A DNA stretch of 64,000 nt, taken from NCBI GenBank assembly GCA_963767925.1, contig CAVYGB010000008.1, positions 3,040,001-3,104,000 on the forward strand, written 5' to 3'. The DNA comes from an uncultured delta proteobacterium (GTDB taxonomy: Bacteria > Myxococcota_A > Polyangia > Fen-1088). The translations under genes and the position numbers were made by a program. The notes under the pieces are model-generated. The model was not told the origin of the DNA. It searched no databases and was given only the letters and a program-made list of their open reading frames with translations. Of the stretch, positions 1 to 25,060 are shown one piece after another (position 1 is the stretch's first letter; each line of letters begins with the position of its first letter).

Positions 1-1
1 C

Positions 2-85
2 GAGATCACGACCGATCTGACCGGGACCGCCACCACCACCGTGGCCTTCATCGTCGACTCCAAGCCGGCCGTGACGGCCGCCTGA
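2..85 (+). CDS. 3' end of a gene entering from upstream; probable paralog of the two following genes
   Basis: Frame from nt 2 reads EITTDLTGTATTTVAFIVDSKPAVTAA*. Its VAFIVDS matches the C-terminal LAWVVDT and VAWTVDT of the next two ORFs. Confidence 0.65.
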   Translation, partial: EITTDLTGTATTTVAFIVDSKPAVTAA

Positions 86-121
86 CGTCCGCCGCCGTGC
101 CACCGCAGGGGTAGCTAGCTG

Positions 122-1240
122 ATGCCGGCCCGCCTCCGCGTGCGCCGCCCGAGCCCGGAGTGGGCGAGCCCCGACAGCGAGGGGCGCCCTTCGGTCGATC
201 CCGGCCGGAGGGCGCCGCCCGTGCGCGGGGAGCGCACCTTCAACGCGATCTTGCCCGACGGGCGGATCGCCTGGCTGGGGCTGCATCCCGCCCTGGCGTC
301 CGCCGGGGAGACCCGGCACTTCGCCCACGTCGTCAACCGGGGGGCCGAGCGCCGGGCCCGGGCGCTCGGGCGGCAGAGCGCCTCGATCCGGGCGCTGGCC
401 GGCACGCTCGACGCCGACGCGCGCCGGCTGGCCGGCGGCCAGCTCCGCGGTGCCGGCCGACTCCGGCGCCGGCTGGTGGCCGACCATGCCCGGCTGGATC
501 GGCGCCTGTCCGCCGGGTTCTCGGCGCACGACGCGGCCCAGACCCGGATCGATCGGCGGCTGCGGAACTTTGCCCGCCGGCTGGCCCGGCGCGACCTGTG
601 GGACCAGCTCGTGCTACTGAGCGCGCTGCCGCTGTTCGCCGCTTACCGGCAGCCCGGCGATCCCCTGGCCCCCAGCAACCTCGCCCTCACCTTGACCCTC
701 GCGGTCTGGGTGCTGGGGGACGACCTCACCGAGCTGCTCTCGGGCTCGCGCCGGGGGCTCCCCCACTACCTGCGGGGTACCGACGCCTGGTCGTTCGTGG
801 CCCCCTTCGCGAATCTCCTGACCGGCTGGCTGCTGCTGCGCGATCTGCAGCACGACCCCTTCATCACCGGACTGGCCGACCGGTTCCACCTGGCCGCGCC
901 GAGCCTCCCCGACCCGGCCAACCCCGGCGACCAGCTCTACATCTACCGGCAGCAGGTCGACCTGGCGCCCTGGATCGCCGCCGGCTACGTCATCGACTTC
1001 ATCACCTTAGACGGCTTGCCGGCGGTGGCGGGGGTGGCCCAGGCGGGGTTCGCGGCGAGCCTCCCTCCCGGCACGGCGCCCCGGCTGCGGGGGCTGTCCG
1101 CCTCCGTGGCCGGCGGGGTCCTGACCCTCACCGCGATCTTCGGCGCCACGATCGTGGGCCCGCCGCCCTCCGATCTGCGGGAGTCGCCCCGGTCGCTGGT
1201 GCTGGCCTGGGTGGTCGACACGCGGGAGCCCCTCACGTGA
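122..1240 (+). CDS. Hypothetical protein, paralog family member (coiled coil, hydrophobic hairpin, C-terminal beta-rich domain)
   Basis: 372-aa ORF with GC3-rich codons. Collinear motif sharing with 1237-2196. Stop overlaps the next start (GTGA). Confidence 0.8.
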   Translation: MPARLRVRRPSPEWASPDSEGRPSVDPGRRAPPVRGERTFNAILPDGRIAWLGLHPALASAGETRHFAHVVNRGAERRARALGRQSASIRALAGTLDADARRLAGGQLRGAGRLRRRLVADHARLDRRLSAGFSAHDAAQTRIDRRLRNFARRLARRDLWDQLVLLSALPLFAAYRQPGDPLAPSNLALTLTLAVWVLGDDLTELLSGSRRGLPHYLRGTDAWSFVAPFANLLTGWLLLRDLQHDPFITGLADRFHLAAPSLPDPANPGDQLYIYRQQVDLAPWIAAGYVIDFITLDGLPAVAGVAQAGFAASLPPGTAPRLRGLSASVAGGVLTLTAIFGATIVGPPPSDLRESPRSLVLAWVVDTREPLT

Positions 1241-2196
1241 CCCGCCCCGGCGACGACGTCCGGACTGCCGTGGCGGGCGCCCTCTTCGATCGAGCCCGCG
1301 CGCGCCTGGCGGGCGGGATGGGCGGAGCGCCACCGCCCGCGTCCGGATCGACGCCCGCCCCGGGGCCCACCCGCGCGCTTCGCTTCCGCCTGCCCGATGG
1401 GCGGACCGTGCCGGTGCGGGTAACGCCGGCGGTGGCCCGGCACGCCGACGTCGCCGCGCTCGCCCGCGCCCAGGAGGAGCTGACCCGAAAGGTGGCCGAG
1501 CTGCAGGCCAGGAGCGACCTGGCCTTGCTCGGCGTGGCGCACAGCCTGGCGGGCCTGCGCCGCCAGGTGCAGACCACCGCCAGCACCCAGGCGAAGACCC
1601 TGGCCACCCGGGACCGCTCGCTGCGGCTCCAGACCCTCCGCCAGCGCAAGCAGCTCCGGACGCAGGCCGCCGTCCAGGGCCGGGTCGAGCAGATCCGGCG
1701 GCTCAATGCCGCCGCCAGCACGATGCAGAGCGCGGCCTACGGGCAGAAGGGGGAGCTGGTCTCCCGCAACAACCTCCTGCTGGCAGGCAACCAGCTCCTC
1801 TGGAGCTACATCGATCCGATCCTCGAGCGGCTGGGGCTCTGGTCGGGTCCCTGGCCAAGCCCCATCGCCTGGGTGTCGCCGCTGGCGAGCCTGCTGGCCG
1901 GACGCCTCACGGTGGGGCGGTTCCAGCACGTCCGCTTCGTCTCGGGGGTGGCCACCTTCGATGGTACAACCCGCACCCGCCACATCTCCCTGGCCGACCG
2001 CATCGGCGCCGCCGACTTTCCCGGACTGCGGCGGCGGACCGACCTGCCGGTCACCTTGACCCAGCTCGACGGGCCGAAGGCCTCGGTCGACGGCCAGGTA
2101 CGGAACGGGACCCTCGTCATCCAGTTCGCCATCGGCACCTCGATGCCGGTCGGGCGGGTGGCCTGGACGGTCGACACGGGGCTGGGCAATGTCTGA
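1237..2196 (+). CDS. Hypothetical protein, paralog of 122-1240
   Basis: Real portion of listed ORF 160..2196, starting at GTG 1237 in a GTGA overlap. Motifs LPDGR, AAYGQKG, QHVRFVSG, VAWTVDT. Confidence 0.8.
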   Translation: MTRPGDDVRTAVAGALFDRARARLAGGMGGAPPPASGSTPAPGPTRALRFRLPDGRTVPVRVTPAVARHADVAALARAQEELTRKVAELQARSDLALLGVAHSLAGLRRQVQTTASTQAKTLATRDRSLRLQTLRQRKQLRTQAAVQGRVEQIRRLNAAASTMQSAAYGQKGELVSRNNLLLAGNQLLWSYIDPILERLGLWSGPWPSPIAWVSPLASLLAGRLTVGRFQHVRFVSGVATFDGTTRTRHISLADRIGAADFPGLRRRTDLPVTLTQLDGPKASVDGQVRNGTLVIQFAIGTSMPVGRVAWTVDTGLGNV

Positions 2197-2755: not shown

Positions 2756-3449
2756 TCTCGGCGGACATGCGGTTGCGCCGCTCGAACTCCACCGGGTCGC
2801 CGGCCGCCCGGTCGGGGTGGTACTCCATGCGCCGCTTGCGCCAGGCATCGTTGACCACCTCGTCGGAGGCGTCGGGCCGCACGCCGAGCACCTGACAGGC
2901 CCGCAACACGTCGTCGGCCGAGCGGGCAGCGGCGTCGGCGAAGGGCAGCGGCCGGCCCGCCCGGTGGTCGGCGATGGCGCTGCGAAACACCCCCGCCACC
3001 CGCTGCGCCGCCGCCTCCCCGGCCGCCAGGTAGAAGGCCTGCCCCAGGAAGTCGAGGTTGCGCGAGAGCCCGGACCAGACCGCGCCGAGCAGGGCGCTGC
3101 GGGCGATCACCATGACGTCGCCGCTGCTGGGGAGGCCGGACTGCCAGGCGATCATCTGCCCGCCACAGAACAGCCAGTAGCCCGGGGTCACGCCGAACAG
3201 GCTCGGGGCCCCGCAGGCCCGGAGCTGCTGGTGCAGGTACGGCAGGGCCCGCGCCGCCGACAGCATGAGATCGGTGAGCGCCACCGCCCCGAACAGCACC
3301 GGGGCGCCCTCCTCCTCGCGCAGGTGCTGGCCGAGGGCTCCGTTGAAGGTGTGGGCGGGGTGGACCGAGACGAAGACAACCACCACCTCGGCGCTCCCCA
3401 CGAACTCGAAGAAGCGGCTGGCGTCGACCGCGACCGGCTCGGCGGTCAT
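2679..3449 (-). CDS. J-domain (DnaJ-like) protein with N-terminal thioredoxin-like region lacking CxxC
   Basis: C-terminal VLGVRPDASDEVVNDAWRKRRMEYHPDR...AEINLARD is a J domain with the HPD motif. ATGA overlap with the upstream hydrolase stop. Confidence 0.85.
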   Translation of the reverse strand: MTAEPVAVDASRFFEFVGSAEVVVVFVSVHPAHTFNGALGQHLREEEGAPVLFGAVALTDLMLSAARALPYLHQQLRACGAPSLFGVTPGYWLFCGGQMIAWQSGLPSSGDVMVIARSALLGAVWSGLSRNLDFLGQAFYLAAGEAAAQRVAGVFRSAIADHRAGRPLPFADAAARSADDVLRACQVLGVRPDASDEVVNDAWRKRRMEYHPDRAAGDPVEFERRNRMSAEINLARDVILNRRSRAGPRPRAQAWG

Positions 3450-6400
3450 GCGTTCGACCGGCGGCCGCGCTTCCTGGGAAAGCCGTAGGAGTAGTCGGCC
3501 GGCACCCGGTCCTCGATCCCCTCGAACCAGATGTCCATGAACGTGCCCTCGCGGGCCAGCTTCAGCAGGGGCGGGCCGTTGTCCCGGGCGCCCACGAAGA
3601 CGTCGAAGTGGGCGCCGTAGATCGCCCCGCCGGTGTCGTTGACCTGCAGCCAGCCGTCGTGCCGCTTGCCGTCGGGCAGGGTGAAGCCGTCGAGCTGCCG
3701 GATGTAGACCCGGGTCCCGGTGGGGACCAGGCCGGTCTTCCCGTTGATCACGACGCGGGAGCGGCTCTTGCCGACGGCGCCTCGGTAACGGTCGTCGGAG
3801 CTCTCGAAGGCGCCGATGTCGGCGGCGAGGGTCCGGTAGGGATCGAGGGGGATGCCCCGGAGGATGCCGTAGCCCAGGCCCTCCTTGGCGGTCGGGGTGA
3901 CGGCGTAGGCGCGCACGCTGGTAATGTCGTCGTCCTCGAGGGAGATGCCGGAGACCTTGGTGCGATCCTGGTACTTGTTGCCTGCCGGGTAGCGCCGGCG
4001 GTGGACGGCGAGGACGGGGGCGTAGTCGTGGTCGCCGGGGGCGCGCCAGCCGGCGCCGGAGAGGAGGCGGCCGTCTTTGAGGCGGCCGCTGCCCTGCAGG
4101 GCCATCTCGGCGAAGAAGCCGGCGGGGACCTGGGCGATGACGTCGCCGGTTTTGGAGAGGAGGGGGACCAGCGGATCGGTGGTGGTGGGGGGTTCGATGG
4201 CTACGTGGTAGGCGGTGATGAAGAAGGGGCGGAAGGCGGTGGTGGGGGCGGTGGGGGCGGTGGTGGAGAGGGGGGCCGGGGAGAGGGGGGCGGGGACGGG
4301 GACGGGGATGGGGACGGGGGGGTGAGCAGTCGGGGTGGGGAGACGGGTGGGGGGGCGGATTTCGAAGTGGATGTGGTCGTCGTGGTCGTCCTGGGGTTTG
4401 CAGAGGGACTCGGCGATCAGGGTCTCGTCGTTGAAGTAGATCTTTGCGACGGGGGGTTGGGCGCGGAGGGCTTGCAACATGGCGCGGGCGGCGTTCCGGT
4501 CGTAGGTGGGGGAGGTGGGGGTGATGCCTCCGGCCTGGCCGTCGAGTCTCGGCAGGCGGAGGTCGCAGGCCAGACCGGTCTCGTGGCCGCTGTGTTTGGG
4601 GGTGTCGCCGCCCCGGGGGAGGCTCACGTTGTTGGTGGTGAGCGGGGTGGCGGCGGGGTGGGCGCGGAGGTGGTTGTCGCGGTAGTGGGCGCCGGCTGCC
4701 CGGATCACGTCGGCCAGCCAGCTCGTGCCGTAGTCGTGTTTGTCCCGGGTGTCGGTCAGCTCGAAGTTGTGGAAGCCCTCGGCGGGCGAGCCGGCGGGCA
4801 TCACCTGCCAGCGGGGGGCGTTGCGGGCCTGCAGCCAGTCGAGGGTGGCGCCGGGCACGTCGACCCGGCCGTCGCCGCGAACGCGGTGGCGGCCGGCGGC
4901 GATCGACTGCACCAGGTCGATGGCGTGGAAGATGTCGGCGTCGACGGTCCGGCCCGGCTTGACCCAGTGGTAGCCGAGCGCGATGAGGCGATCCTTCAGT
5001 GCCGCCACGTCGTCAGGGGCGTTCACCCCACCCCGCCCCACGCTGGCGCGGAGGATGAAGGTGGCGTCGGGGGCGAGGGGGACCGGGGGGGCGACCGCCG
5101 GGGGCGCGAGCGCGGCCGGCGCGGGGGCGGGGGCGAGCTGGCGCAGGGCCTCGGGGGTGACGATGGCGTCGGCGCGGCCGCCGTCGACCGCGCGCTGCCA
5201 GCGGACGAAGGCCAGGGTGGTCTCCACGTCCATGAGGGCGGTGGCGGCGCCGGTGTAGTGCCCGGCGCGGCGCAGACCCTCCTGCAGGCGGGTCACCTCG
5301 CCGCCGCTCGAGCCGAAGCGCAGCCGGGTCAGCGCCGCGCCCGGGTTGGCGAGCTGCCCGACCAGGCGCGCCTCCCGCCCGGTGAGCAGGACATAGTGAA
5401 AGGCGCGCCCGTCCTCCCCGGGGGGAGCGGCGGCCGGGGTCAGCCCGGCTGCCTCGCGGAAGTCCCGCCAGGCGCCGGCGTGCACCCCCGTCTGCCGATC
5501 GTATTCGCCGGGGACGGTCTGACAGCCCTGCGACGAGAACCCGTCGCTGCCCACCCGGCGGGCGGGGTGGAGGTTGTCGTGGACCACCCCGGAGTCCCAG
5601 GTGTCGGCCACCGTGTAGACGAGATCGTCGAGCGTCCGCAGCACCACCACGGCGCCCTGCTGGCGGAAGGCGCCCTTGACCTCCCGCGGTTTGCTGCGGG
5701 CGTGGGTGCCTACCCGGTACGGGTAAAAGCCGGTCGGCAGCAGGTTGCAGCGATCGCCGGGCTGGTTGTGCACGAACTTCCGCATCGATCCGGCCGAGGG
5801 AACGGTCGAGCCCTTGAACAGGCGGATCCGGCCGCCCGGCCAATCCCAGACCCCCAGCAGGCAGCGGGCGCCGTCGTGGTCGGGGGTGGTCTCCACCAGG
5901 CGCGCGGCGGTGGTCCAGCCGCTGCCCAGGGCCTCCCCTTCCAGTGTGCAACCGCGCAGCCCGAACAGCAGGCGATCGCCGGCCGCCGCCAGCGGGAACC
6001 GGTTGAGGGCACAGAGTTGCTCGAGGTGGGCCACCCCGAAGGAGAAGGGGAGGTGACTGGCGGGGTGGGCCTGCAGGTGCCGGTGATCGGGGGCCTCGCC
6101 GTCCACTGCCCAGCGAGCCGCGCCGGTGGCGGCCGGCGCGGTGGGCGCGGTCGGACGGGTCGCGGGCGCCGGGGGCCGGGGGGCGCGCGCCGCCGCGGCG
6201 GGGGCGGTGTCCTCCAGGGTGCCGCCGGCGAGGAGCTGCAGGAAGTGCAGCGGGTGGTACCAGATCCAGCCGTCGCGATCGCCGGGGTCGGCCCAGTAGG
6301 CCCGGCCGACGTTGCCCCGGGCCGAGCGGTGGCGGTTGGCCTGGGCCGGGTCCATGGCCTGCAGCGCCTCGCGGGAGGCCAGCGGCTCGAGCCCCTCGAA

Positions 6401-7549
6401 GACGTCCCGGCTGATGATCTCGAGGTGCAGGTGGTGCCCGCTGTGCAGGAAGCCGAGGGGGCCCAGCGCCTCGCCGGCCCGCACCCGGGTCCCCGCGCGC
6501 AGGGGGAGGATGCGGCGGCGCCCGCGCAGCCAGGTCGTCCAGTCGACCTTCTCCGCCTCGGTCCAGCGCAGGAACTCCGAGGCGCTCGGCACCCGTGTCC
6601 GGTCCTCGCTGCCGAGGTCGGTGCACAGGAGATTGTGCAGGTGCACGTAGCGCACGAGGAAGCTGCGCCCGTCGGGCAGCTCGTGGCGCACCACCACGAT
6701 GACCCCGCCGTTGCCGGGCCCCGAATAGGCCGTGTCGAGGCTGGCGCCCACCACCGTCCCGTCGCCGATCGAGCGCACCGCCAGCTTGCCGACCGCTGCC
6801 GCCGGGATCGGGATGTCGACCGCGCCGTGCCAGGCCTGCCGATCGGCCTTCTTGCGGCTGTAGAGCGGGAAGTGGCCGCCGAACTGGGCCCGGTAGACCA
6901 GCCCGAGGAACGATCGGTAGCTGGTGTCGCGATCGCCGTCCAGCGCCGCGACACCGGCCGCCCGGGCCCGCTTGCGCCAGGCCTCGTCGAAGTGGCTGTC
7001 CAGCTCCTGCAGCCGGAAGGGGAAGGTCCAGCCGGTCGGCGCCGGGGCGGGGGTCGGTTGCGGCCGTTGCCCGAGGACGAGCGTGTCTTCCCGGATCAGG
7101 CCCCGGGGACCGTAGAGCATGTGCGGCTCGACGTCCTCGCCGAGCACGCGCACGGTGGCCAGCCGGGCCTCGCCGAGCGCGCGCTGGACCACGAGCTGGC
7201 CCGGGGAGAAGGCCTGCAGCGGCGCCGCCGAGCCCGGCAAGGCGACCGGCTCCCAGACCACCTCCGCCCAGGCCTCGTCGGCTTCGGGGCCGTCGGGCGG
7301 AAGCGCGATCACCTGCGCCCCCCCGTACACCACCCTATCGAACACCCGGCCCAGATCAGGTCCCCCGGACGGAAGCGCGATAGGCGTCGGCATCGGCGTC
7401 CATTGCTCGACGGGCGCTGGCGCTTCACCGAACAGATCGGCGGCGAACCGATCGGCGCGCGCCCGCTCCGCGGGCGATCCCGGCGCGCCCCCCCCGCTCC
7501 CGTTGCCCCGAGCCCCCCGGCGCTGCCCCCGAACATCCCGATCCCACAT
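3446..7549 (-). CDS. Multidomain peptidoglycan hydrolase: M23 peptidase, L,D-transpeptidase-like domain, PG-binding domains, MepA-like endopeptidase, 3D domain
   Basis: M23 motifs HGAVD and HLHLEI; LHP...SSQGC; LRFGSSGGEVTRLQEGL and SVGRGGVNAPDDVAALKDRL (PG-binding); SLPRGG..KHSGHETGLACD and HDDHIHFE; NDTGGAIYGAHFDVFVG. Pro/Thr/Ala linkers separate the domains. Confidence 0.85.
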   Translation of the reverse strand: MWDRDVRGQRRGARGNGSGGGAPGSPAERARADRFAADLFGEAPAPVEQWTPMPTPIALPSGGPDLGRVFDRVVYGGAQVIALPPDGPEADEAWAEVVWEPVALPGSAAPLQAFSPGQLVVQRALGEARLATVRVLGEDVEPHMLYGPRGLIREDTLVLGQRPQPTPAPAPTGWTFPFRLQELDSHFDEAWRKRARAAGVAALDGDRDTSYRSFLGLVYRAQFGGHFPLYSRKKADRQAWHGAVDIPIPAAAVGKLAVRSIGDGTVVGASLDTAYSGPGNGGVIVVVRHELPDGRSFLVRYVHLHNLLCTDLGSEDRTRVPSASEFLRWTEAEKVDWTTWLRGRRRILPLRAGTRVRAGEALGPLGFLHSGHHLHLEIISRDVFEGLEPLASREALQAMDPAQANRHRSARGNVGRAYWADPGDRDGWIWYHPLHFLQLLAGGTLEDTAPAAAARAPRPPAPATRPTAPTAPAATGAARWAVDGEAPDHRHLQAHPASHLPFSFGVAHLEQLCALNRFPLAAAGDRLLFGLRGCTLEGEALGSGWTTAARLVETTPDHDGARCLLGVWDWPGGRIRLFKGSTVPSAGSMRKFVHNQPGDRCNLLPTGFYPYRVGTHARSKPREVKGAFRQQGAVVVLRTLDDLVYTVADTWDSGVVHDNLHPARRVGSDGFSSQGCQTVPGEYDRQTGVHAGAWRDFREAAGLTPAAAPPGEDGRAFHYVLLTGREARLVGQLANPGAALTRLRFGSSGGEVTRLQEGLRRAGHYTGAATALMDVETTLAFVRWQRAVDGGRADAIVTPEALRQLAPAPAPAALAPPAVAPPVPLAPDATFILRASVGRGGVNAPDDVAALKDRLIALGYHWVKPGRTVDADIFHAIDLVQSIAAGRHRVRGDGRVDVPGATLDWLQARNAPRWQVMPAGSPAEGFHNFELTDTRDKHDYGTSWLADVIRAAGAHYRDNHLRAHPAATPLTTNNVSLPRGGDTPKHSGHETGLACDLRLPRLDGQAGGITPTSPTYDRNAARAMLQALRAQPPVAKIYFNDETLIAESLCKPQDDHDDHIHFEIRPPTRLPTPTAHPPVPIPVPVPAPLSPAPLSTTAPTAPTTAFRPFFITAYHVAIEPPTTTDPLVPLLSKTGDVIAQVPAGFFAEMALQGSGRLKDGRLLSGAGWRAPGDHDYAPVLAVHRRRYPAGNKYQDRTKVSGISLEDDDITSVRAYAVTPTAKEGLGYGILRGIPLDPYRTLAADIGAFESSDDRYRGAVGKSRSRVVINGKTGLVPTGTRVYIRQLDGFTLPDGKRHDGWLQVNDTGGAIYGAHFDVFVGARDNGPPLLKLAREGTFMDIWFEGIEDRVPADYSYGFPRKRGRRSNA

Positions 7550-7688
7550 CGCCTCGCTCCTTGCCTCGCGACCTTCGACCGCAGTCCGACCCCGTCATGC
7601 TAACACCGCTCGCAACGCCCGCAGCGGAGGAACGACAAAAGCGCAAGACAAGCGCGCGACAAACGCGCGCCGAGCGCAGTGGCACACC

Positions 7689-7717
7689 GGAAATTTTCCC
7701 TGGCCCTGAAAATTTCC
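7689..7717. promoter_or_regulatory. Perfect 10-bp inverted repeat GGAAATTTTC-N9-GAAAATTTCC, candidate operator in a divergent intergenic region
   Basis: Read directly. It is an AT-rich dyad in very GC-rich DNA between divergent genes. Confidence 0.5.
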
Positions 7718-7757
7718 CCGCGCTGATCGTTGTCGATCACGAAGCGCGAGCTGCCAA

Positions 7758-7840
<83 letters not shown>

Positions 7841-7945
7841 GCGGACAACGAGCCAATCGTCGTTTGAGGGGTTCGTTTCTCGATCGGTCGTGATACATTC
7901 CGACCGGGCTCGTGTTCACGGAGGGATCGAGATGAGGGTACGGGC

Positions 7946-8803
7946 ATGAGGGTCAGGGGGCGGACGCGGACGATCCATTCTCTGGATCGCGATACGCTGG
8001 ACTGGGACACGCTGTTCGAGACCCGCCCGCCCGGGTGGAGCGCGGGGCTCCCCGGGCCGCCCGTGTCGGAATCGGCGTCGGAGTCGTTCGCCACCGCCGC
8101 CACCGCGGCCGTGTCGACCCTGCAACTGCGCAGCAGCGTGGCCACGGTGGCCGAGGGCCAGCACGACCGCTGGCACGCCGGCACGGAGACGCTGCAGGAG
8201 TCCGACACCTGGGGCAAACACATCCTCCGGCACGACTACTGGGCCAGCATCGGCATCACCAACCCCGCCACCCAGCTCGGCACGGCGAGCTGGTGGACGG
8301 TGGCCTGGAGCGCCGTCTTCGTCATGTTCTGTGTGCACCGGGCCCGCACCGGGCTGCAGCTCCCCGGCGCCGTGCTGGGGCACCCCACCCTCACGCGCAA
8401 CTCGGCCCACGCCGCCTATAGCTGGCAGGCCCATCAGGACCGCAGCAGCCGCCGGCGCGGGCGGTACTGGGCCTATCGCCCCGCCGACGCGCTCGTCGAG
8501 GTCGGCGACATCATCGTCAAGGGCCGCGAGGGCGTGACCGCGGCGACGGCCTGGGCGGCAATCACGTCCGCCACCTACAGCGGCTTCACCTCCCACGGCG
8601 ACATCGTGGTCCGGGTGGAGGGGGCCAACGCCCGGGCCATCGGCGGCAACCTCGGCAACTCCGTGACCCGGGCCAGCTACCCGCTCACCGCCGACGGCAT
8701 GGTCGACACGACCTCGACGACCAACGACGCCAACCGGGTGGCCGCCGTCCTCAAGCCCGAAGGTGGAGCCTTCTCGGGGCGACTCACGTCGATGGTCACC
8801 TGA
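7946..8803 (+). CDS. DUF2272-like (CHAP/NlpC-P60-related) putative cell-wall hydrolase
   Basis: AWSAVFV, VGDIIVKGR, SHGDIVV and IGGNLGNSV are typical DUF2272 motifs. No signal peptide. Confidence 0.75.
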   Translation: MRVRGRTRTIHSLDRDTLDWDTLFETRPPGWSAGLPGPPVSESASESFATAATAAVSTLQLRSSVATVAEGQHDRWHAGTETLQESDTWGKHILRHDYWASIGITNPATQLGTASWWTVAWSAVFVMFCVHRARTGLQLPGAVLGHPTLTRNSAHAAYSWQAHQDRSSRRRGRYWAYRPADALVEVGDIIVKGREGVTAATAWAAITSATYSGFTSHGDIVVRVEGANARAIGGNLGNSVTRASYPLTADGMVDTTSTTNDANRVAAVLKPEGGAFSGRLTSMVT

Positions 8804-8944
8804 AGCGCCGGCGGGCCGGTCACCCGGGAGCCGATCGCTCGTTCGAGGGGAGAGCGTTTCCAGCCGTCCGACTGGATTGTGTGGAGGGAGAGCACCATGG
8901 AGCATCGAAGAGCCTGGCCCCGGGGTAGGTCGAACCCGCCGGGG

Positions 8945-11047
8945 ATGTCGGAGACGGATCTGTTCGAGCGGGACCTGTTCGGTCCACCCCCGCCGCGGCG
9001 GGCCCAGGTCGTGCCACCGGCGGTGGCGCCCCGCCTGCCCACCGGCGGGCCGGAGGTCTTCGAGATCCACGCCCCCTACGAGGCGCCCGCGCCCGCCCCG
9101 GCCCCCGCGCCCGCCCCGCCGCCTGCCCCCCCTCCCGCTCCGGGGACCGCCGCCCGCGGCGCCGCCGCGCCGGTGGTCCTCAAGCGCGTGCAGATCCGCC
9201 TGCCCCTCACCAACGAGGAGCTGGAGGTCGCCAAGCTCTACGATCCGCGGGCCGACACCGTCGCCATCCGCGGCACCAACCGCCAGGGCCAGCCGGTCGA
9301 CGTGAGCCGCAAGCTGGCCGACGAGGAGCGAGCCCGCCTGCGCCGCTACCGGCAGATCCACCCCGTGCTTGCGACCGCCATGGGGCGCGCCTCGGCCGGG
9401 CAGCGCTTGCGGGTGGCGATCTGGGTGCACGTACCCGAGGACCTCTTCGACAAGGGCCCCCAGCTCGGCTCGTCGCCGGGACCGGAGGGGCCCCTGGTGG
9501 CCTCCTCCGAGAGCGACGAGACGATCGACCGGGGCGTGCGTCCCGGCGCGCCCACCCGCCCGGCCGAGCCCGGCGGCCCGGCGCGCATGACCGACTACCG
9601 CCGCCAGGTGGAGGTCGCCCTCGAGCGGGCGGCGCGCGAGCTACCCGCCGCCACCGGCGTGCAGGTCACCGGCCGGCTCGGCACCGTCCCTACCCTCCTG
9701 GTCGACGCCACCCCCGTTCAGATCCGCGCGCTGTCGGCCCGCCCCGACGTGGCGGGCCTTTACCTGCACGAGCCGGAGGGGATCGACGACCTCTCCGATT
9801 CCATGCGCATCGCCCGGGCCACCCCCACGGTGGCGGCCGGATGGAAGGGGACCAACATCCGGGTGGGCATCTGGGAGCGCGGCCCCGACGACACGACAAA
9901 CCTGCGCATCGAGGAGTTCTTCGACACCGCCCAGACCCAGAAGTCGTCTCACGCCCGCCTCACGACCGCCATCGTCAAGAACCGGGAGTCGGGCGCCCCC
10001 CAGGGGTACGCCCCCGACGCCAAGATCTTCTCGGCCAACTCCTACGGGCTGGACGCGCTCCACTGGGCGGTGGTGACAAAACAGTGCCGCGTGATCAACC
10101 AGAGCTTCCACGGCCCCAGCGAGGAGGGCTCCGGCGTCCTCTCGCTCGAGGACCTGGTCAAGGACTACCTGGCCACCCACTTCCCCTACCCCACCATCGT
10201 GCACGCCGCCGGCAACCAGTCGCCCGCCACCACCGAGTTCGTCAACCACAAGGGGTTCAACAGCGTGGTGGTCGGCAACCACGACGACACCGCCCGGCAC
10301 ATCCAGCCCAGCTCCGTGTTCCGGAACCCGACCTCGGCCCACAACGACCGGGAGCTGCCCGACCTGTGCGCCAACGGCGACGGCATCAGCGCGGTCGGGG
10401 TCAGCATGAGCGGGACCAGCTTCGCCTCGCCGGCGGTGGCCGGCTCGGTGGCCCTGCTGCAGAACGCGGCCAACGTCCTGCTGAGCTGGCCCGAGGGCTG
10501 CCGGGCCATCCTGCTGGCGGCCGCCGGGCGCAACGTGCGCGGCCGGACCTGGTGGGACGACGTCAACCTCCGCAACGACGGGCGCGATGGGGCCGGCGCC
10601 CTCGACACGCGCGAAGGGGTGCGCATCGCCCGGGACCGGGCCCGTCGCGGCGCCGCCGCCGCCCGGCGCGGCTGGGACGTGGGGACCCTGCGCACGGCCG
10701 ACTTCGACGGCAGCGGCAAGAGCACCTTCCGCCACCAGATCGCCGTGCCGGCCGGGACCGCCCCCTGTCCGGTACGGGTGGCGCTGGCCTGGAACAGCAA
10801 GGTCACCTACACCACCGACAGCACCCAGACGCCGCCGGTGACCAACGTCCGCTCCGAGCTGACCGTCGACCTCGACCTGCAGGTCTACAAGGCCGGCGCC
10901 CTGGTCGCCTGGAGCAGCAGCTTCGACAACAGCTACGAGGTCGTCGACTTCCAGGGCGAGCGGGGCGCCACCTACGACATCGTGATCCGCCGCTGGTCCG
11001 GCACCGACTGGGTCTGGTACGGCGTGGCCTGGACGGTCTTCGACTGA
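8945..11047 (+). CDS. S8 subtilisin-like serine protease with prodomain and C-terminal beta-sandwich
   Basis: VGIWERG (Asp position), SSHARLTT (His), HAAGN (oxyanion), SGTSFASP (Ser). Start chosen at ATG 8945; 8879 and 8897 are alternatives. Confidence 0.85.
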   Translation: MSETDLFERDLFGPPPPRRAQVVPPAVAPRLPTGGPEVFEIHAPYEAPAPAPAPAPAPPPAPPPAPGTAARGAAAPVVLKRVQIRLPLTNEELEVAKLYDPRADTVAIRGTNRQGQPVDVSRKLADEERARLRRYRQIHPVLATAMGRASAGQRLRVAIWVHVPEDLFDKGPQLGSSPGPEGPLVASSESDETIDRGVRPGAPTRPAEPGGPARMTDYRRQVEVALERAARELPAATGVQVTGRLGTVPTLLVDATPVQIRALSARPDVAGLYLHEPEGIDDLSDSMRIARATPTVAAGWKGTNIRVGIWERGPDDTTNLRIEEFFDTAQTQKSSHARLTTAIVKNRESGAPQGYAPDAKIFSANSYGLDALHWAVVTKQCRVINQSFHGPSEEGSGVLSLEDLVKDYLATHFPYPTIVHAAGNQSPATTEFVNHKGFNSVVVGNHDDTARHIQPSSVFRNPTSAHNDRELPDLCANGDGISAVGVSMSGTSFASPAVAGSVALLQNAANVLLSWPEGCRAILLAAAGRNVRGRTWWDDVNLRNDGRDGAGALDTREGVRIARDRARRGAAAARRGWDVGTLRTADFDGSGKSTFRHQIAVPAGTAPCPVRVALAWNSKVTYTTDSTQTPPVTNVRSELTVDLDLQVYKAGALVAWSSSFDNSYEVVDFQGERGATYDIVIRRWSGTDWVWYGVAWTVFD

Positions 11048-11085
11048 GGGCAGCGGGGCCAGGGCGCGGGCGGGGAGGTCGGAAG

Positions 11086-12396
11086 ATGGTCTCGAAGAGA
11101 GCGTGGTTGCAGGCGGAGCTGTTCTACGCCGATCTGATGGGGCTGCCGGCCCCCTTGCTTCCGGGCAGCGCCCGGCCGCTGCGGCGGCTGCCGGCCTTGC
11201 CGTACGAGCAGAACCCGCCCGCCCCCGCGGTCCTCCCGCCGCCCACCCCCATCCACCCGGTCCCCCGGGGCCTCAACCTGGTCCCCCACGCCCACCTGCG
11301 CCAGACCTGCGCCGACGGGCAGGCCTTCCGGGCCGACGCCGCCGCCACCCCGATGTCGTCGGCCACCATGAACCCGGGCTTCCTGAAGGCCGACGACCTG
11401 ATCGAGTTCGACACCCGCCTCGACGGCAAGCTGATCGACCTCATCGTGGGCAACGCCGACTACCGGACCATGGTGAGCGCCGAGAGCGTCCGGCGCCGCT
11501 GGCCCAGCCAGGGGGACAAGCTGCGGGTGGCCCTCGTCGACCTCACGGGTAGCAAGCTGTGCCGGCCCGGCTACGCCGGCTGGGGCTCGACCTGGCCGAT
11601 GCCTGGCGGCAGCACCGCCAAGATCGCGATGGTCTACGCCGCCCACCAGCTCCTCTTCGATCTCGACGAGCTGGCCCGGGTGGGCGGCCTGCGCACGGCC
11701 GCCGACCTGAAGACCGCCGCCCGCGCCGCCTGGTCGGGGCTGACCTGCCCGCCCGACCTCGACTGGCTCGTCCAGCTCGACGCCAGCAGCGCTCCGGTGC
11801 GGGCCACCGCCAGCGCCAACCTGCAGCGGCACCTGCGGGAGATGGTGGACGCCTCCTTCTCCGGCGTCAGCACCTCGCGGGCCAGCGAGCTGATCATGCG
11901 GATCGGGTTCGAATACCTCGCCTCGGTGCTGTGGCAGTCGGGCCTGCGCCACCCCACCCGCAACGGGCTGTGGGTGGGTAACACCTTCATGAACGTGTCG
12001 ATCACCGCGCGCGCCCAGGCGGCCTGCCACAGCGGCAACAACCCCATCACCTGGAGCAAGAACCCGCTGGGGGCCACCGGCATCACCCTCACCGGCCTGT
12101 CGGCGGCGACCTATTTCACGCTCCTGGCCCAGCGCCGGCTGGTCAACGACGCGGGCTCGCGCCAGATCGAGACCCTGCTCGCCAGTGGCTGCCGCTTCAT
12201 CTCCCTCTCCGGCGCCACAATCCGGGCCAGCAAATGTGGCCTCACCTCCTCGGTGCGCCACGACGCCGCCCTGATCGAGAACGGCACCCGCCGCTACGTG
12301 GTCGTCGTCCTGACCAAAGACGCCACCTGGTCCACCGCCGTGCGCGCCCGCTTCCTCGACGACCTCGACACCCTCATCCGCAACAACAACCCTTGA
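11086..12396 (+). CDS. Serine hydrolase, class A beta-lactamase/PBP-like fold
   Basis: GGAGG RBS at 11074. VALVDLT..., GSTAK (SxxK), SKCG at the KTG position, RHDAALIE...RRYVVVVLT. Confidence 0.75.
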   Translation: MVSKRAWLQAELFYADLMGLPAPLLPGSARPLRRLPALPYEQNPPAPAVLPPPTPIHPVPRGLNLVPHAHLRQTCADGQAFRADAAATPMSSATMNPGFLKADDLIEFDTRLDGKLIDLIVGNADYRTMVSAESVRRRWPSQGDKLRVALVDLTGSKLCRPGYAGWGSTWPMPGGSTAKIAMVYAAHQLLFDLDELARVGGLRTAADLKTAARAAWSGLTCPPDLDWLVQLDASSAPVRATASANLQRHLREMVDASFSGVSTSRASELIMRIGFEYLASVLWQSGLRHPTRNGLWVGNTFMNVSITARAQAACHSGNNPITWSKNPLGATGITLTGLSAATYFTLLAQRRLVNDAGSRQIETLLASGCRFISLSGATIRASKCGLTSSVRHDAALIENGTRRYVVVVLTKDATWSTAVRARFLDDLDTLIRNNNP

Positions 12397-12467: not shown

Positions 12468-13916
<1,449 letters not shown>

Positions 13917-14086
13917 CAAGCTCCGGGCGCACGGGCTGCCCACCGATCCCGGCCCGGCCGCCGCCTGACCGCCCGCGCCCGCGCTCGCCGCCGCCCCGTC
14001 TCCGCGCGGGCCGCCGCCGCTCCGGCGGCGGGGATTGATCGGCCGTCGCCTTGCTTTGTCCACCCGGCGCCCCACCTTCGTGTTCC

Positions 14087-16525
14087 ATGGCCATCAAGAA
14101 GGCGTCGTCGAATTCAGGCCGCTCACCCTCCACCCGCGGTCCGGCCGCCGGAGCCTCCACCTCCAGCGCCCGCTCGACGGTGAGCGGCCCCGCCCGCAAG
14201 GACCGGGCCTCGCGCCAGGCCGGCGATGCCCTCGTCGCGAAGATGGACGGCACCAACGCGCTCGTCGCCGAGCGGCCCTTCAACCCCAACAAGGCGGGCG
14301 AACACGGCAAGGCCGCCCTCGATCCCCAGCCGGGTGCCACCGCCAAGCCGGCCTCGCCGGCCATCACTGCGAGCACCTGGACCGAGGGGAGGGGCTCGGT
14401 TAAGACCGGCTCGGGCAAGCCCAACCTGGGCCACAACCCGGGCAACCTCCCCCTCGACCGTGTCCGCGTCGACTCCTCGGAGCGCGTGCTGACCACGAAC
14501 CAGGGGGTGCCGATCGCCGACAACCAGAGCTCGCTCAAGGCGGGCCTGCGGGGCCCGGCGCTGCTCGAGGACTTCATCCTCCGGGAGAAGATCACCCACT
14601 TCGACCACGAGCGGATCCCCGAGCGCATCGTGCATGCCCGGGGCTCGGCGGCCCACGGATTCTTCGAGTGCTACCAGCCCATGACCAAGGTGACCCGGGC
14701 CTCCCTCTTCGCCGAGGCTGGCAAGCGCACCCCGGTCTTCGTCCGCTTCTCCACGGTGGTCGGCGAACGTGGGTCGGCCGACACGCCCCGCGACGTCCGC
14801 GGCTTCGCCGTCAAGTTCTACACCGACGAGGGCAACTGGGACCTGGTGGGCAACAACATCCCGGTGTTCTTCATCCAGGACGCGATGAAGTTCCCCGACC
14901 TCATCCACGCCGCCAAGCCCGAGCCCCACTTCGGCATGCCCCAGGCCGCCACCGCCCACGACACCTTCTGGGACTTCGTGTCCTTGATGCCCGAGTCGAT
15001 GCACATGCTGATGTGGGCGATGTCCGACCGGACCTTGCCCCGCAGCTACCGCATGATGCAAGGCTTCGGGGTGCACACCTTCCGGCTGGTCAACGGGGAG
15101 GGTGAATCGACCTTCGTGAAGTTCCACTTCCGACCGGTCGCCGGGACCCACTCGCTGGACTGGGACGAGTCGGTGAAGATCATGGGCGCCGATCCCGACT
15201 TTCACCGCCGCGACCTCTGGGAGGCCATCGAGGGCGGCGCCTTCCCCGAGTGGGAGCTGTCATTTCAGCTCTTCTCCGAGGAGCAGGCCGAGCGCTTCTC
15301 CTTCGACGTCCTCGACGCCACGAAGATCGTGCCCGAGGAGCTGGTCCCGCTCACCCCGGTGGGCCGGCTGGTGCTCGACCGCAACCCCGACAACTTCTTC
15401 GCCGAGACCGAGCAGGTGGCCTTCTGCGCCGCCCACATCGTGCCGGGCATCGACTTCTCCAACGACCCCTTGCTGGCCGGGCGCATCCACTCCTACGTCG
15501 ACACCCAGATCTCGCGCCTCGGCGGCCCTAACTTCCACGAGATCCCGATCAACGCCCCCATCGCCCAGGCCCACAACAACCAGCGGGACGGCATGCACCG
15601 CCAGGCCATCAACCGGGGACGGGTGGCCTACGAGCCGAACTCCCTGGGAGGCGGCTGTCCTTTCCAGGCCGGCAGCGCTGGCTTCACCTCGTTCCGGCAG
15701 CCGCGCGACGGAGACAAGGTGCGGGGAAAGCCCGAGAAGTTCGCCGACCACTACAGCCAGGCCACCCTCTTTTACAACAGCCAGACGCCGATCGAGAGGG
15801 CGCACATCCGCCGGGCCTTCCGCTTCGAGCTCACGAAGGTCCAGACGCCCGCCGTGCGCGAGCGGGTGGTAGCCATGATCGCCAACGCCGACGCCGAGCT
15901 GGCCGAGGCGCTGGCCGGCGACCTGGGGATGGCCGAGACGCCCGCGCCCCTGCCCAGGGCGCTCAAGCGAGCGCCCCGGCCCGAGGTGGAGACCTCGCCG
16001 GCCCTGTCGCTGTTCGCCCGCCCGGGCGACGGCAGCATCCGCACCCGCCGGGTGGCCATCCTTGTCGCCGACGGCGTGGCGGGCGAGGCGGCGGAGGCCC
16101 TTCACGCGGCGCTCGGCGCGCAAGGCGCGGTGGCGCGTTACGTGGGACCGCGGCTCGGGACGGTCACCACCGAGGAGGGGGAGCCGCTGGAGGTGGAGGT
16201 CACGCTGGAGACGATGCCCTCGGTCCTCTTCGACGCGGTGGCGGTCCCCGGCGGCCGGCGCGCCGTCGAGGCGCTCGGCAACCTGGGCCATGCCCTCGAG
16301 TTCCTCAAGGACCAGTATCGCCACGCCAAGGCCATCCTCGCCCTCGGTGACGCCGCGGGCCTGCTGGAGAAGGCCGGCATCTCTGCGCTCCTGCCTTCCG
16401 GCAAAGCGGATCCCGGGCTGCTCGTGGTGCCGGCCGAGGGGCTCGCCAAGGTGGTGCCCTCCTTCGTGAAGGCCATCGCCCGCCACCGCCACCACGAGCG
16501 GGAGCTGGACCCACCCGGCGTGTGA
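14087..16525 (+). CDS. katE: Catalase HPII (large-subunit, clade 2) with C-terminal DJ-1/GATase-like domain
   Basis: [38 protein letters not shown]-terminal [10 protein letters not shown]...FDAVAVPGG. Confidence 0.95.
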
Positions 16526-18690: not shown

Positions 18691-19479
18691 TCAGCGAAAG
18701 GCGTAGCCGGTCGAGAGCAGGAGCCGGAGCAACGACGGCGCGCCGGCGACCGTCGCTTCCGCCCGGGCCCCGACCGTCCACCTGGCGATCGTGGCGTCCG
18801 CGCCGAGCCCCAGGATGGCCCGCGCGCGGCCGGCGGAGAGGACCGGCACCGCCCCCGTCGCGGCGGCCAGCCAGCGCAGCGGACCGACCCGCTGGAGCGT
18901 GCCGCTGAGCCCCGCGGTGACCTCGGAGGGGTTCATCGGGTTCACGACCGGGCCCGCCGCCGGTCCATGGTGACCGGCGTGACCATCCAGCGCGGCGAGC
19001 GCGCGGCCGTAACCAACCTCGGCGGCCAGGGCGAGGTGGCTCCAGCCCACGCTGGTCCAGATCCCCGCCATCAACATCGCGTGCCCCATCCCGAGCTGCC
19101 GTCCGGCATCGCCGAGCGGGGCCGACCCCATGAGGGCGAATCCGCCCGCCGGCCCGGCACCCGCGCGCCCGAAGACCGGGACCGCCACCGCCAGGCTCGG
19201 GTCGCCGGGCCCGAACCAGGTGGCCCCCTCCGACTGCAGCCGGTACACGGGGAACCGCACGGCGGCGGAGAACGCCCTCGACCCGCCCGAGAGGCGCAGC
19301 CCCATCCCCTGGAAGTTTCCCGCCCCGTGCTCGTCGCGGAAGGTGGCCACCTCCGGCTCGAAGGCCACCGTCACCGCCGGGCCGGCGGCTTCGTCCTGCA
19401 CCGCGGGAGCGTGTGAATGCGCGCGGGCGACGCCGCCCGCGCCCAGCAGCAAGAGCAACGCGATGGAGAGAGGCACCAT
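18691..19479 (-). CDS. Putative outer-membrane beta-barrel protein with His/Met-containing loops
   Basis: Signal peptide MVPLSIALLLLLGAGGVARA, alternating beta-strand pattern, C-terminal STGYAFR, segments HSH, GMGH, HAGHHG. Confidence 0.6.
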   Translation of the reverse strand: MVPLSIALLLLLGAGGVARAHSHAPAVQDEAAGPAVTVAFEPEVATFRDEHGAGNFQGMGLRLSGGSRAFSAAVRFPVYRLQSEGATWFGPGDPSLAVAVPVFGRAGAGPAGGFALMGSAPLGDAGRQLGMGHAMLMAGIWTSVGWSHLALAAEVGYGRALAALDGHAGHHGPAAGPVVNPMNPSEVTAGLSGTLQRVGPLRWLAAATGAVPVLSAGRARAILGLGADATIARWTVGARAEATVAGAPSLLRLLLSTGYAFR

Positions 19480-19549
19480 GTCCGGCAAGATGCCCCGGTC
19501 GCGGCCGGCTGCGAATGCGGTTTGTTGTCGCAGCTCCCCGGCGACGGGT

Positions 19550-21310: not shown

Positions 21311-21469
21311 TGGACACCCATCGGGCCGGGGGGAGCTGCGACCCGTGCCAGGGACGATACCCCAAACCCGCGCCCCGGTGTCTCCTCGGATCGCCGCGCA
21401 CCGCTCCCCGAGGGCCAGACGGAGGATCGCACCCTCAAGGGCGCGCCGGGCTGTCCCGATGTGAGGCCC

Positions 21470-24400: not shown

Positions 24401-25060
24401 CCGGCTTACAACGCCTCGAGCGACGGACAGCTCATCGCCTCCCGCACCCGCCTCTACGTAAAGCGCACCCCGCCCGCGCCCCGCGACTGCGGCGAGCTGC
24501 TGGCCCGGGACCCGGTCGCACCCGACGGGATCTATCTGGTCGACCTCGACGGCCCCGCCGCCATCCCGCTCACCCCGGTGGCCTGCGACATGGCCGGCGG
24601 GGGGTGGACCCTGGTCTCGGACCAGGCCGCCGCCGTGCCACCGGGCTACCGGGAGCCCGCCCTCTGGCTCGCGGGGGTCGACGACACGCCCCCCAATGGC
24701 GGGCAGTGGAGCATCCTGCAGCACCTGCGCGCGTTCACCTCGCTCACCGGGAGCTACCGGTTCCGCATGACCTGGGACGAAGCCGAGGACCGCTTCATCG
24801 AATGGGAGCAGGACAGCAACCCCCTCGACGGCCGCGGCACCGTCAGCAACATCACGATGGTCCCGGCCAACCAGGTCGGCACGGGCGCCTTCCAGGGCCT
24901 CGCCTCCGACGGCCCCGCCGCCCTCGACGGCGAGCCGGGCGCCGCCTACTCCTGGGCGGTCGGCACCCTCTCCACCTTCGGCGGCGGCATCCCCGCCTAC
25001 GACGACTCGGACACCGGCACCCTCACCGCCGCCCGCACCCGCCTCTACTTCCGCCGCTGA
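21470..25060 (+). CDS. Lipoprotein: papain-like Cys-His-Asp domain, six Ca-binding EGF-like repeats, two fibrinogen-like (CDM..GGGWT) domains
   Basis: Lipobox VASAC; GGRCEG / GGHAI / VYDNN; D[VL]DEC...CxCPxG[FY] x6; FCDMTGGGWTL and ACDMAGGGWTL. Real part of listed ORF 19130..25060. Confidence 0.85.
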   Translation: MMRPARIWKKLGRGLVAIALVASACGEDEPALVLPEMPVPSGFEVNANAFAFPNYGGVRPDGDLTSSEVTRMFGRDGVCADSEASCRLTPIAREFATNANASMQGGRCEGFAVLTGLMYLGKIDPGSFGGTSARALMLEGNADLAREISYWFSTQYLKDVVKTSTRSLNAAEAVSFLAAEYVKPDHDLYRIGMVRVDEAGRRVGGHAILAVGVTPGETKGQYLIEVYDNNHPAAKRSIKVDSATNRWEYQASTNPNQQASLYVGDPANKNKLFISGIRNRAGTHACPFCRTNAMEAEQALSQIFTFGSAETSATDAMGRVAGEMNGQFVTDIPDAVVTPGFSEDLDQDLPPTMMLLPPGKLDLSIRRRPGDASGEPIRVAAFLGGSVVGIENGTLAEGQTARIEVSADRETVKYFPAPGTAATVFSAVEGPDGKQTLIRLQVPADKGVEVAAIGFDAETGNATLSVTGAGDLELPIEVTRSSSASEENIDGVVAVPTTGSTTLLVEQWMGQGESLPVATDRDGDGTPDESGALVDRTPATPNECLPGGPGLTACGPGSCTDTPAAFYCTCPAGFSGSGTLACADVDECGTSPCGAGTCTNAVGSFTCTCPTGYTGTGTVACAEVDECAAGGAGDLACGAGTCENSPGSYTCTCPTGYTGTGTGACADVDECAAGEPGTLACGAGTCDNTPGAYTCTCPTGYGGTGSGECFDVDECAPGGAGIAACGPGSCDNSAGGFACTCPPGFTGTGTTACSDLDECAPGGIGAAMCGPGTCDNLPGLYACTCPEGSTGTGTPACTPDTPEPQGLDCEGILAGSPGADDATYLIDPDGPGPIAAFEVFCDMTGGGWTLIFDQDSSVAPGYRTPAEWLAGVTDTSPGEGQWSALQHLGALGDFGGGYTFRMTWDDEETGIQWRQTTNPLIERGLVVDVTMLPTGQEGAGAFAGLGPDGTTAALDGEDGGGASWWAIGTGAAISGGIPAYNASSDGQLIASRTRLYVKRTPPAPRDCGELLARDPVAPDGIYLVDLDGPAAIPLTPVACDMAGGGWTLVSDQAAAVPPGYREPALWLAGVDDTPPNGGQWSILQHLRAFTSLTGSYRFRMTWDEAEDRFIEWEQDSNPLDGRGTVSNITMVPANQVGTGAFQGLASDGPAALDGEPGAAYSWAVGTLSTFGGGIPAYDDSDTGTLTAARTRLYFRR

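Follow-up and report, generated by a model that had tools for sequence, protein, structure and literature searches.

The DNA analysed here, referred to as the window, is a stretch of 64,000 nt at positions 3040001–3104000 of contig C8 in the genome of an uncultured delta proteobacterium (genome G000; 9.34 Mb, 71% GC, 13 contigs, 84% complete). Three neighbouring genes in the window encode a peptidoglycan (PG) hydrolase (PGH), an S8 subtilase and a serine hydrolase (SerH) that share a short N-terminal leader with the motif [DE]xFxxDL[FM]G. A gene for TcA, the A subunit of an ABC/Tc toxin, lies just outside the window and is the sole TcA gene of G000. It is followed by six plus-strand genes without any known family (gA–gF). 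The PGH gene converges on this row, and its stop overlaps at positions 3446–3449 with the start of a gene for a thioredoxin-fold protein with a C-terminal J domain (Trx-J). An operon for a DUF2272 protein, the S8 subtilase and SerH diverges from the PGH gene. The TcA gene and the conserved accessory module were missed in the initial annotation of this DNA; the "paralogs" and the "J protein" mentioned there are members of the module. Feature positions are given in Table 1.

The regular expression [DE].F..DL[FM]G has exactly three matches in the 18,673,934 six-frame residues of G000, all in the PGH, S8 and SerH genes, and every instance initially annotated is confirmed. The expectation from residue composition is 0.07 matches genome-wide. 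Because three are found, all in neighbouring genes, the copies are not due to chance, and the motif does not occur at background frequency. Over the same residues the reversed motif gives 0 matches and five permuted motifs give 1, 1, 0, 0 and 1. When a local hidden Markov model (HMM) of the motif is run against 89,170 open reading frames (ORFs) of G000, the three genes come out on top (E 8.9e-5, 0.0026 and 0.033) and the fourth match has E 2.4. There is no enrichment of the motif across the proteome, i.e., G000 has only these three copies. All three lie downstream, and not upstream, of the start codons: ATG at 7549 (PGH), 8897 (S8) and 11086 (SerH), each with an upstream AGGAG/GGAGG-type ribosome-binding site. 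GC content at third codon positions of the leader codons is 0.79–0.92, which is of coding type. The leader of PGH in its wider extent spans the minus strand from the ATG at 7549 to approximately 7391.

The catalytic domains behind the leader are non-homologous, as had been noted (see Pfam families in Table 1); the Beta-lactamase2 match of SerH has 20.9 bits, just below the curated cut-off of 22. Two other observations of the initial annotation are not borne out. A PYE sequence followed by a Pro-rich tract is indeed present in both the S8 subtilase and SerH, but it is found in 0 of the 87 leader representatives described below and in 2 of the first 21 (P0001–P0021) of 120 S8 homologues. The weaker motif in the DUF2272 protein of the window (DTLDWDTLFE) receives no score from the leader HMM; other DUF2272 proteins (on metagenome contig L017, and P0170) bear a true leader.

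Table 1. Positions of the leader cores, genes and other features at the locus (window coordinates unless a contig is given)
Feature	Position	Strand	Remarks
Leader core DRFAADLFG of PGH	7427..7453	-	Residues 33-41 (D33 at nt 7453)
Leader core DLFERDLFG of S8 subtilase	8957..8983	+	Position of regular-expression match
Leader core ELFYADLMG of SerH	11116..11142	+	Position of regular-expression match
PGH, multi-domain peptidoglycan hydrolase, 1367 aa	3446..7549	-	Pfam PG_binding_1 and 3D; weak M23/MepM and SleB similarity
Trx-J, thioredoxin fold (no CxxC) with C-terminal J domain (HPD), 256 aa	2679..3449	-	Start overlaps PGH stop
Divergent intergenic region, PGH operon / DUF2272-S8-SerH operon	7550..7945	.	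Tandem repeats
DUF2272 protein, 285 aa	7946..8803	+	Pfam
S8 subtilase, 716 aa from MEHRRAW	8897..11047	+	Pfam Peptidase_S8
SerH, class-A beta-lactamase-like serine hydrolase, 436 aa	11086..12396	+	Pfam Beta-lactamase2, weak
TcA (ABC/Tc-toxin A subunit), 3397 aa	G000:C8:3026437-3036630		Ends 3.4 kb upstream of window; Pfam domains
gC, 3' end	1..85	+	Gene starts at window -1264; paralogue of gD and gE
gD	122..1240	+	Paralogue of gC and gE
gE	1345..2196	+	Third paralogue; start uncertain, between 1240 and 1345
gF, 188 aa	2189..2755	+	Conserved amphipathic N-terminal ~100 aa, coiled-coil tail

The leader in other proteins

The S8 subtilase has 156 homologues at E ≤ 0.001, and the motif counts given here refer to the 120 listed. 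The motif is present in the first 120 residues of 18 of these, i.e., 12 close orthologues and 6 proteins of a ~1100-aa architecture. Each of the 12 close homologues whose N-terminus is intact (57–76% identity) retains xADLFERDLFG, and three further near homologues are truncated at the N-terminus. The motif is therefore conserved in orthologues; a lack of such conservation had been named initially as grounds for discarding it. The six ~1100-aa proteins are fusions with additional domains N-terminal to the S8 domain, and their leader reads ADLFFEDLTG or AERFYRDLIG; three of the six have a precomputed PG_binding_1 assignment. The S8 homologues with ≤ 49% identity all begin with an unrelated Ig-like N-terminus, which shows that the leader of the subtilase is a separable module. 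The leaderless homologues P0030–P0120 (~740 aa, 40–48% identity), with this Ig-like start, also have no obvious signal peptide. A search for the S8 subtilase in the genomes of 40 relatives gave no orthologue. An orthologue of SerH from a Polyangiaceae metagenome-assembled genome (MAG; P0128, locus L007) retains EADLFFEDLMG.

Word-based and pattern-based searches for other families with a leader alignment (A1) found the leader on an Ala/Gly-rich protein of 458 aa (P0126/P0127) and on the S8 subtilase of an Acidobacteriota MAG (L006). It is also found on seven metagenome contigs. One of these (L017, 9.4 kb) has five leader genes, which encode an unknown 516-aa protein, an Amidase_2 protein, an M15_4 peptidase with two copies of the leader, the 458-aa helical protein and a DUF2272 protein. 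On contig L015 both an S8 subtilase and a 919-aa Metallophos protein are tagged.

A leader profile (A3; 25 sequences, 36 columns) was searched against 1.84 billion protein representatives with a cut-off of E ≤ 1e-3, and matches 87 protein clusters. The motif lies within the first 140 residues in 86 of the 87, with a median position of 24, and it is in tandem in 28. The consensus by column is FG-x-VS-x-RERR-x-A(96%)-D/E(96%)-L-F(96%)-[FYL]-A-D/E-L(98%)-x-G(95%)-R-P-x-RRR, with an invariant core A-[DE]-L-F-x-A-[DE]-L-x-G. The leader is an N-terminal segment of 25–35 residues that consists of a short amphipathic helix with Arg-rich flanks; a disordered linker rich in Pro and Arg comes next. No model in Pfam or NCBIfam spans the leader.

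A Pfam scan covered 55 of the 87 representatives. Amidase_2 and M15_4/VanY are found three times each and PG_binding_1 four times (three of these proteins also have OmpA and Big_2), Hemopexin is found twice, and there is one each of M23 with Phage_lysozyme2, Metallophos, DUF2272 (P0170), an Rv2525c-like glycoside hydrolase and Poly_export. Three matches are unrelated: two are probable false positives (P0187 and P0193) and one consists of hexapeptide-repeat domains (P0206). The remaining 32 of the 55 scanned proteins have no Pfam family at E ≤ 0.001. Judged by these assignments, the attached domains are predicted to be mostly peptidoglycan hydrolases or binders. At the level of sequence comparison the leader is shown to be a portable N-terminal tag that is often in tandem and is independent of the enzyme family behind it.

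Several known signals were compared with the leader and rejected. A strong hydrophobic stretch (12-residue Kyte-Doolittle mean > 2.0 in the first 70 aa) is present in only 2 of the 87 representatives, one of which is a false positive, and the leaders are therefore not Sec or Tat signals; the core also holds two acidic residues, and the consensus of Tat signals includes an h-region that is absent here. The N-terminus of PGH likewise has no Sec- or Tat-type hydrophobic stretch. By comparison with known consensus sequences, the leader is not a beta-clamp-binding motif, since the substrates of the tagged proteins are extracytoplasmic, nor a double-glycine leader of peptidase-containing ABC transporters (PCAT), since the residue after the G is variable, and it has no resemblance to colicin-type Ton/Tol boxes.

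Two domains recur behind the leader. One (PAGFRxGVWxDVGG), which has no Pfam family, is found in the ~1100-aa S8 fusions P0015 and P0017–P0021, in P0202, and in a 359-aa protein encoded beside TcA in genome G268 (L026, positions 6771–7847). The other, a small conserved domain (VFDxVVY...W.VVA.PG...GDL), is often directly behind the leader and is present in PGH at residues ~60–190 (window ~7370–6980, minus strand) and in P0145, P0168, P0182, P0188, P0191, P0203, P0204 and P0208. PGH residues 28–188 are homologous to the N-terminus of a 1173-aa leader protein from genome G041, and the VFDxVVY domains of the two proteins have 36–41% identity by tblastn.

Co-occurrence of the leader with a TcA gene module

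Apart from G000, leader genes were located in an Acidobacteriota MAG (G041), a Polyangiaceae genome (G042) and G268, which belongs to a sample of 401 genomes from the phylum of G000. This sample was scanned together with one of 401 genomes from the Acidobacteriota, the phylum of G041. TcA is present in all four leader genomes, compared with 23 of 401 in the phylum sample of G000 and 0 of 14 control genomes. The four genomes have a syntenic cluster in common, consisting of a long TcA gene and five or six of the genes gA–gF. Trx-J is encoded in all three clusters whose contig reaches the region (G000, G041 and G268). Genes for leader-tagged hydrolases are located within ~7–25 kb of TcA in 4/4 genomes. 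The TcA of G000 has the domains ABC_toxin_N, neuraminidase-like, PA14 and TcA_TcB_BD (PF18276, at 5e-99), and in G041, G042 and G268 a TcB-binding domain is likewise found with TcA.

G041 and G042 were found by means of the leader. The order in G042 is TcA, gA, gB, gC, gD, gE, gF, after which comes a 623-aa M23 and lysozyme protein with the leader EADLFWADLMG. In G041, gB, gC, gD, gE, gF, the 1173-aa leader protein, a Trx-J homologue and a frame-split TcA adjoin. The TcA gene, the C-termini of gC/gD and the S8 gene of this MAG (L022/L023, C16; also L006) are broken into several frames, which may be assembly errors or pseudogenes. A search from the opposite side used a profile of the three paralogues gC, gD and gE (A2). 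Of the 401 genomes in the phylum sample it matches only two, the TcA-positive G000 and G268. The G268 locus, which was fetched independently of the leader, contains gA, gB, gC, gD, gF, Trx-J, three leader proteins and a TcA of 3466 aa, and also three more leader or leader-like proteins; at least 6 flank TcA. The prediction held both ways, from the leader to the TcA module (G041, G042) and from gD to leader genes (G268).

Strong matches to the leader profile (≥ 27 bits) are limited to the same 2 of 401 genomes, with three in G000 and six in G268, all around TcA in the latter; one of the six is absent from the training alignment. Another TcA-positive genome, G393, has one borderline match of 24 bits, and the other 72 genomes with a leader match at E ≤ 0.1 have mostly single matches at noise level. 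In the Acidobacteriota sample the leader is found in 1 of 401 genomes, G041 itself, with seven matches. Four of these are beside the module, and five are absent from the training set. The leader is shown to be restricted to genomes with the TcA/gA–gF/Trx-J module and to be syntenic with it; it delimits the set of accessory proteins of the module.

TcB/TcC-like genes number 4 in G000, 11 in G268 and 1 in G042; the four ORFs of G000 (709–2281 aa) are on other contigs or far away. In the G268 cluster, two leader-tagged genes are followed by ORFs of lipoprotein type (568 and 275 aa, with a signal and a Cys; L025, positions 5957–8015 and 10529–11353). These could be immunity or inhibitor proteins, and no counterpart is seen in the window.

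Proteins of the module and neighbouring genes

The TcAs of the module-positive genomes have 51–60% identity over nearly their whole length and align to six module-negative TcAs only in conserved cores. The segments at ~1240–1510 (with PA14) and 2150–2380 have no alignment to the six. By these alignments, the module-positive TcAs form their own subfamily, with both segments specific to it.

gA is rich in Pro, Gln, Gly and Phe and has an acidic tail; gB is of coiled-coil type. Of the three paralogues gC, gD and gE, gC has a poly-acidic/aromatic repeat as its N-terminus. gF is kept in 4/4 clusters. NCBIfam gives nothing for gA–gF, and a PHROGs search with gA–gF and the J protein gives J-domain matches alone. 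A search of 5.8 billion proteins gave 24 homologues of gD, all hypothetical or unnamed, and a protein atlas search with gD gave no usable match. At the gC/gD junction (window 83–121), the TAG of gC at 83–85 is separated by 36 nt from the start of gD at 122 in the same frame; with this single in-frame TAG, gC and gD could be two genes or one interrupted gene. No segment of transmembrane (TM) grade is found in gA–gC or gE–gF (19-residue Kyte-Doolittle window, mean > 1.4), and the only hydrophobic stretches of gD (~residues 285–347) fall in its modelled C-terminal beta-sandwich. The module is thus without a holin, spanin or translocon candidate.

In an AlphaFold2 model of gD (29 sequences, pLDDT 78), a beta-hairpin at the N-terminus is followed by a helix of ~107 residues, and a small helical region precedes the C-terminal beta-sandwich. 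The sandwich has a middling similarity to the Helix pomatia H-type lectin (Foldseek E 8e-3, TMt 0.54; VIA Z 7.1, 97 residues, rmsd 3.6). The rest of the model resembles generic coiled coils, including the tail of reovirus sigma1. These dominate the VIA list, in which the lectin match alone concerns a separate domain. Matches of the sandwich to gamma-adaptin ears (probability 0.57–0.66) were considered too weak and were not used. The model, together with the presence of three like-built paralogues, suggests that gC–gE may be a heterotrimeric fibre with lectin-like heads. In a model of Trx-J (3 sequences, pLDDT 72.6) the N-domain adopts a thioredoxin fold and lacks CxxC; its Foldseek matches are thioredoxins, HyaE and YbbN/CnoX (E 1e-3 to 1e-2; none at E ≤ 0.001). 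The HPD of the J domain is invariant.

The divergent intergenic region has repeats at 7633–7853, i.e., (AGCACG)x7.2 at 97% match and 11-nt and 31-nt tandem repeats. Beyond SerH are genes for an NtrC-type sigma-54 activator (12468–13916), a large-subunit catalase with a DJ-1/PfpI C-domain (14051–16525) and a protein of 1976 aa that combines multiple calcium-binding EGF repeats with a fibrinogen-C-like segment (19130–25060).

Possible roles of the leader and comparison with known systems

The initial annotation had suggested that the common leader is a targeting signal. A shared role in targeting or recognition is strongly supported because the leader is conserved in orthologues, separable, N-terminal, often in tandem and restricted to genomes with the module; targeting or export itself we infer. 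The leader looks like an undescribed address label that ties enzymes to a toxin machine. Our preferred interpretation of the analysis, to which we assign a probability of roughly 0.45, is that it may recruit wall-degrading accessory enzymes to the TcA assembly, such that the released particle would carry wall-degrading activities. Some component of the module would recognise the tag. One candidate receptor is a subfamily-specific insertion in the TcA shell. Another is the putative gC–gE fibre: the leader is flanked by Arg-rich stretches, to which the conserved acidic/aromatic N-terminus of gC would be complementary, and this suggests gC as an alternative docking scaffold. Trx-J might be a first partner, as a holding chaperone upstream of docking. 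By such recognition, peptidoglycan amidases, endo- and carboxypeptidases, the subtilase, the phosphoesterase and PG-binding proteins would become attached to the toxin particle, which after its release would deliver wall-stripping enzymes of its own to a target cell with a wall. A precedent is YenTc, whose chitinases are held by terminal peptides. A wider proposal, which is distinctly more doubtful, is that these are a separate, previously unrecognised class of Tc toxins that soil predators (Myxococcota-like bacteria and Acidobacteriota) direct against walled cells, where ADLFxADLxG would be a universal plug-in for any enzyme and gC–gE with Trx-J an adaptor and loader. On this proposal the injector would have a modular system for docking enzymes, and it would be the first Tc toxin equipped to breach bacterial walls.

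Several observations weigh against recruitment to TcA. The co-occurrence consists of four genomes from two phyla, among which kin are not independent. The three leaders of the window are divergent versions that lack the FGxVS..RERR part of the consensus. Several leader genes are far from TcA (G041 contigs C1, C8 and C19; metagenome contigs L013–L019), so that the linkage is genome-wide and not always local. None of the TcB/TcC-like genes adjoins the module, and none is found in G041, which is a MAG. No role of PG hydrolases in Tc toxins is described in the open-access literature, supplements excluded. Lastly, docking does not need a conserved J-domain protein, which fits a chaperone or export role better.

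In such a role the leader would be a signal for secretion or holding and not a docking peptide: it would be bound by the Trx domain of the J protein, which would pass the enzymes to DnaK, and they would be held inactive or unfolded and sent with TcA to a non-classical release. The translational coupling of the J protein to the PGH gene is consistent with this, as are its presence in each of the three assembled regions, its invariant HPD and its thioredoxin fold without CxxC; HyaE, one of the proteins matched by this fold, binds an N-terminal signal peptide. The tagged proteins also act on extracytoplasmic substrates yet have no Sec or Tat features. However, no membrane translocon is detected in the module by the Kyte-Doolittle criterion, and the fold matches of the J protein are weak and come from a model built on three sequences. 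We regard this explanation as somewhat unlikely. A role in self-lysis, similar to that of a type 10 secretion system (T10SS), is improbable. Here the tagged PG hydrolases would lyse a subpopulation of producer cells to free the signal-less TcA, and the leader would coordinate their activation. PG hydrolase genes adjoin TcA in all four genomes, neither TcA nor the enzymes have signal peptides, and T10SS-dependent lysis is described for Tc toxin release (PMC10847048, PMC10847046). A peptidoglycan hydrolase, the endolysin component of such a cassette, is present, but no holin- or spanin-like TM protein is found in gA–gC or gE–gF, and on these features a T10SS lysis cassette was rejected as an assignment. 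Moreover, the tagged set is broader than an endolysin (subtilase, phosphoesterase, ~1090-aa proteins that only bind PG, hemopexin repeats), with 3–7 tagged genes per genome, some of them dispersed, and holin-type release would make a recognition tag superfluous.

The leader could also be a cargo-loading peptide for a shell or injector encoded elsewhere, such as an encapsulin, an extracellular contractile injection system (eCIS) or a type VI secretion system (T6SS), with a coincidental linkage to TcA. Its format, a short conserved helix and a flexible linker on unrelated cargo, resembles that of known loading peptides: payload leaders of eCIS/Photorhabdus virulence cassettes (PVC), encapsulin cargo-loading peptides and encapsulation peptides of bacterial microcompartments (BMC) are all short terminal peptides with a flexible linker on unrelated proteins. 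G000 has a single encapsulin gene (PF04454, Linocin_M18; C8:606766–607521), located 2.4 Mb from the leader genes. Encapsulin genes are found in only one of the four leader genomes, however, phage sheath genes (PF04984) in two (G042 and G268; not found in G000 or G041) and T6SS VipB in three (not found in G000, which is 84% complete). The encapsulin and sheath genes do not track the leader, and the VipB genes appear not to, whereas TcA and gB–gF are present in all four genomes and syntenic with leader genes. Assignments as an encapsulin cargo peptide or an eCIS/PVC payload leader were rejected on these distributions, in agreement with the initial view that the leader does not match such signals. 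This explanation is disfavoured and very improbable. We know of no sequence resemblance of the leader to eCIS/PVC, encapsulin or BMC peptides.

Tc/ABC toxins are known to act as injectors against insects or other animals. To our knowledge their cargo is carried only in the TcB-TcC cocoon, and the sole exception known to us is a recently evolved clade decorated with chitinases. If recruitment of wall-degrading enzymes to TcA is correct, some Tc toxins may target bacteria or other walled cells. The leader would then provide a sequence rule to find the whole effector set from genomes, including unannotated families such as those of the 32 scanned proteins without a Pfam match. There would also be five or six new protein families (gA–gF) and a specialised J protein, with roles open to direct testing. 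The sorting of signal-less wall hydrolases becomes experimentally tractable through a single motif of 10 residues. In open-access full text, no searchable paper contains any of four leader-variant strings, and no description of the leader or of gA–gF is found there, supplements excluded; one paper (PMC13018210) concerns teneurin-like proteins and is not relevant.

Among known proteins, the CxxC-less chaperones HyaE and YbbN/CnoX share with the module J protein a thioredoxin fold that is redox-inactive, and in the J protein this fold could bind an N-terminal peptide. Unlike them, the J protein is fused to a J domain, and the likeness is weak and one of fold only. The eCIS and encapsulin signals differ from the leader in that their machines do not co-occur with it. 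Phage-type T10SS lysis cassettes, as known for Yersinia, are reported to release Tc toxins (PMC10847048, PMC10847046). These cassettes resemble the present module in the linkage of PG hydrolase genes to tc genes and in the lack of a signal peptide on the toxin; they differ in that the module has no holin or spanin candidates, has many diverse tagged enzymes in place of one endolysin, and has a conserved recognition leader.

The YenTc clade, which is decorated with chitinases, comes closest among known systems. According to Low et al. 2025 (PMC12705794), Chi2 docks on TcA via an N-terminal strand and Chi1 via a C-terminal strand. The TcA shell has inserted adhesin-like domains, and each strand occupies a hydrophobic cleft of such a domain. 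Both systems have wall- or matrix-degrading enzymes that are encoded beside TcA and are dissimilar to TcA, TcB and TcC. The enzymes of YenTc are chitinases, whereas those of the present module are PG hydrolases and binders, a subtilase and a phosphoesterase. The hosts here are Myxococcota-like and Acidobacteriota soil bacteria, and gA–gF and Trx-J are extra proteins. In place of the enzyme-specific strands of YenTc, a single conserved helical motif, often in tandem, is found over many enzyme families.

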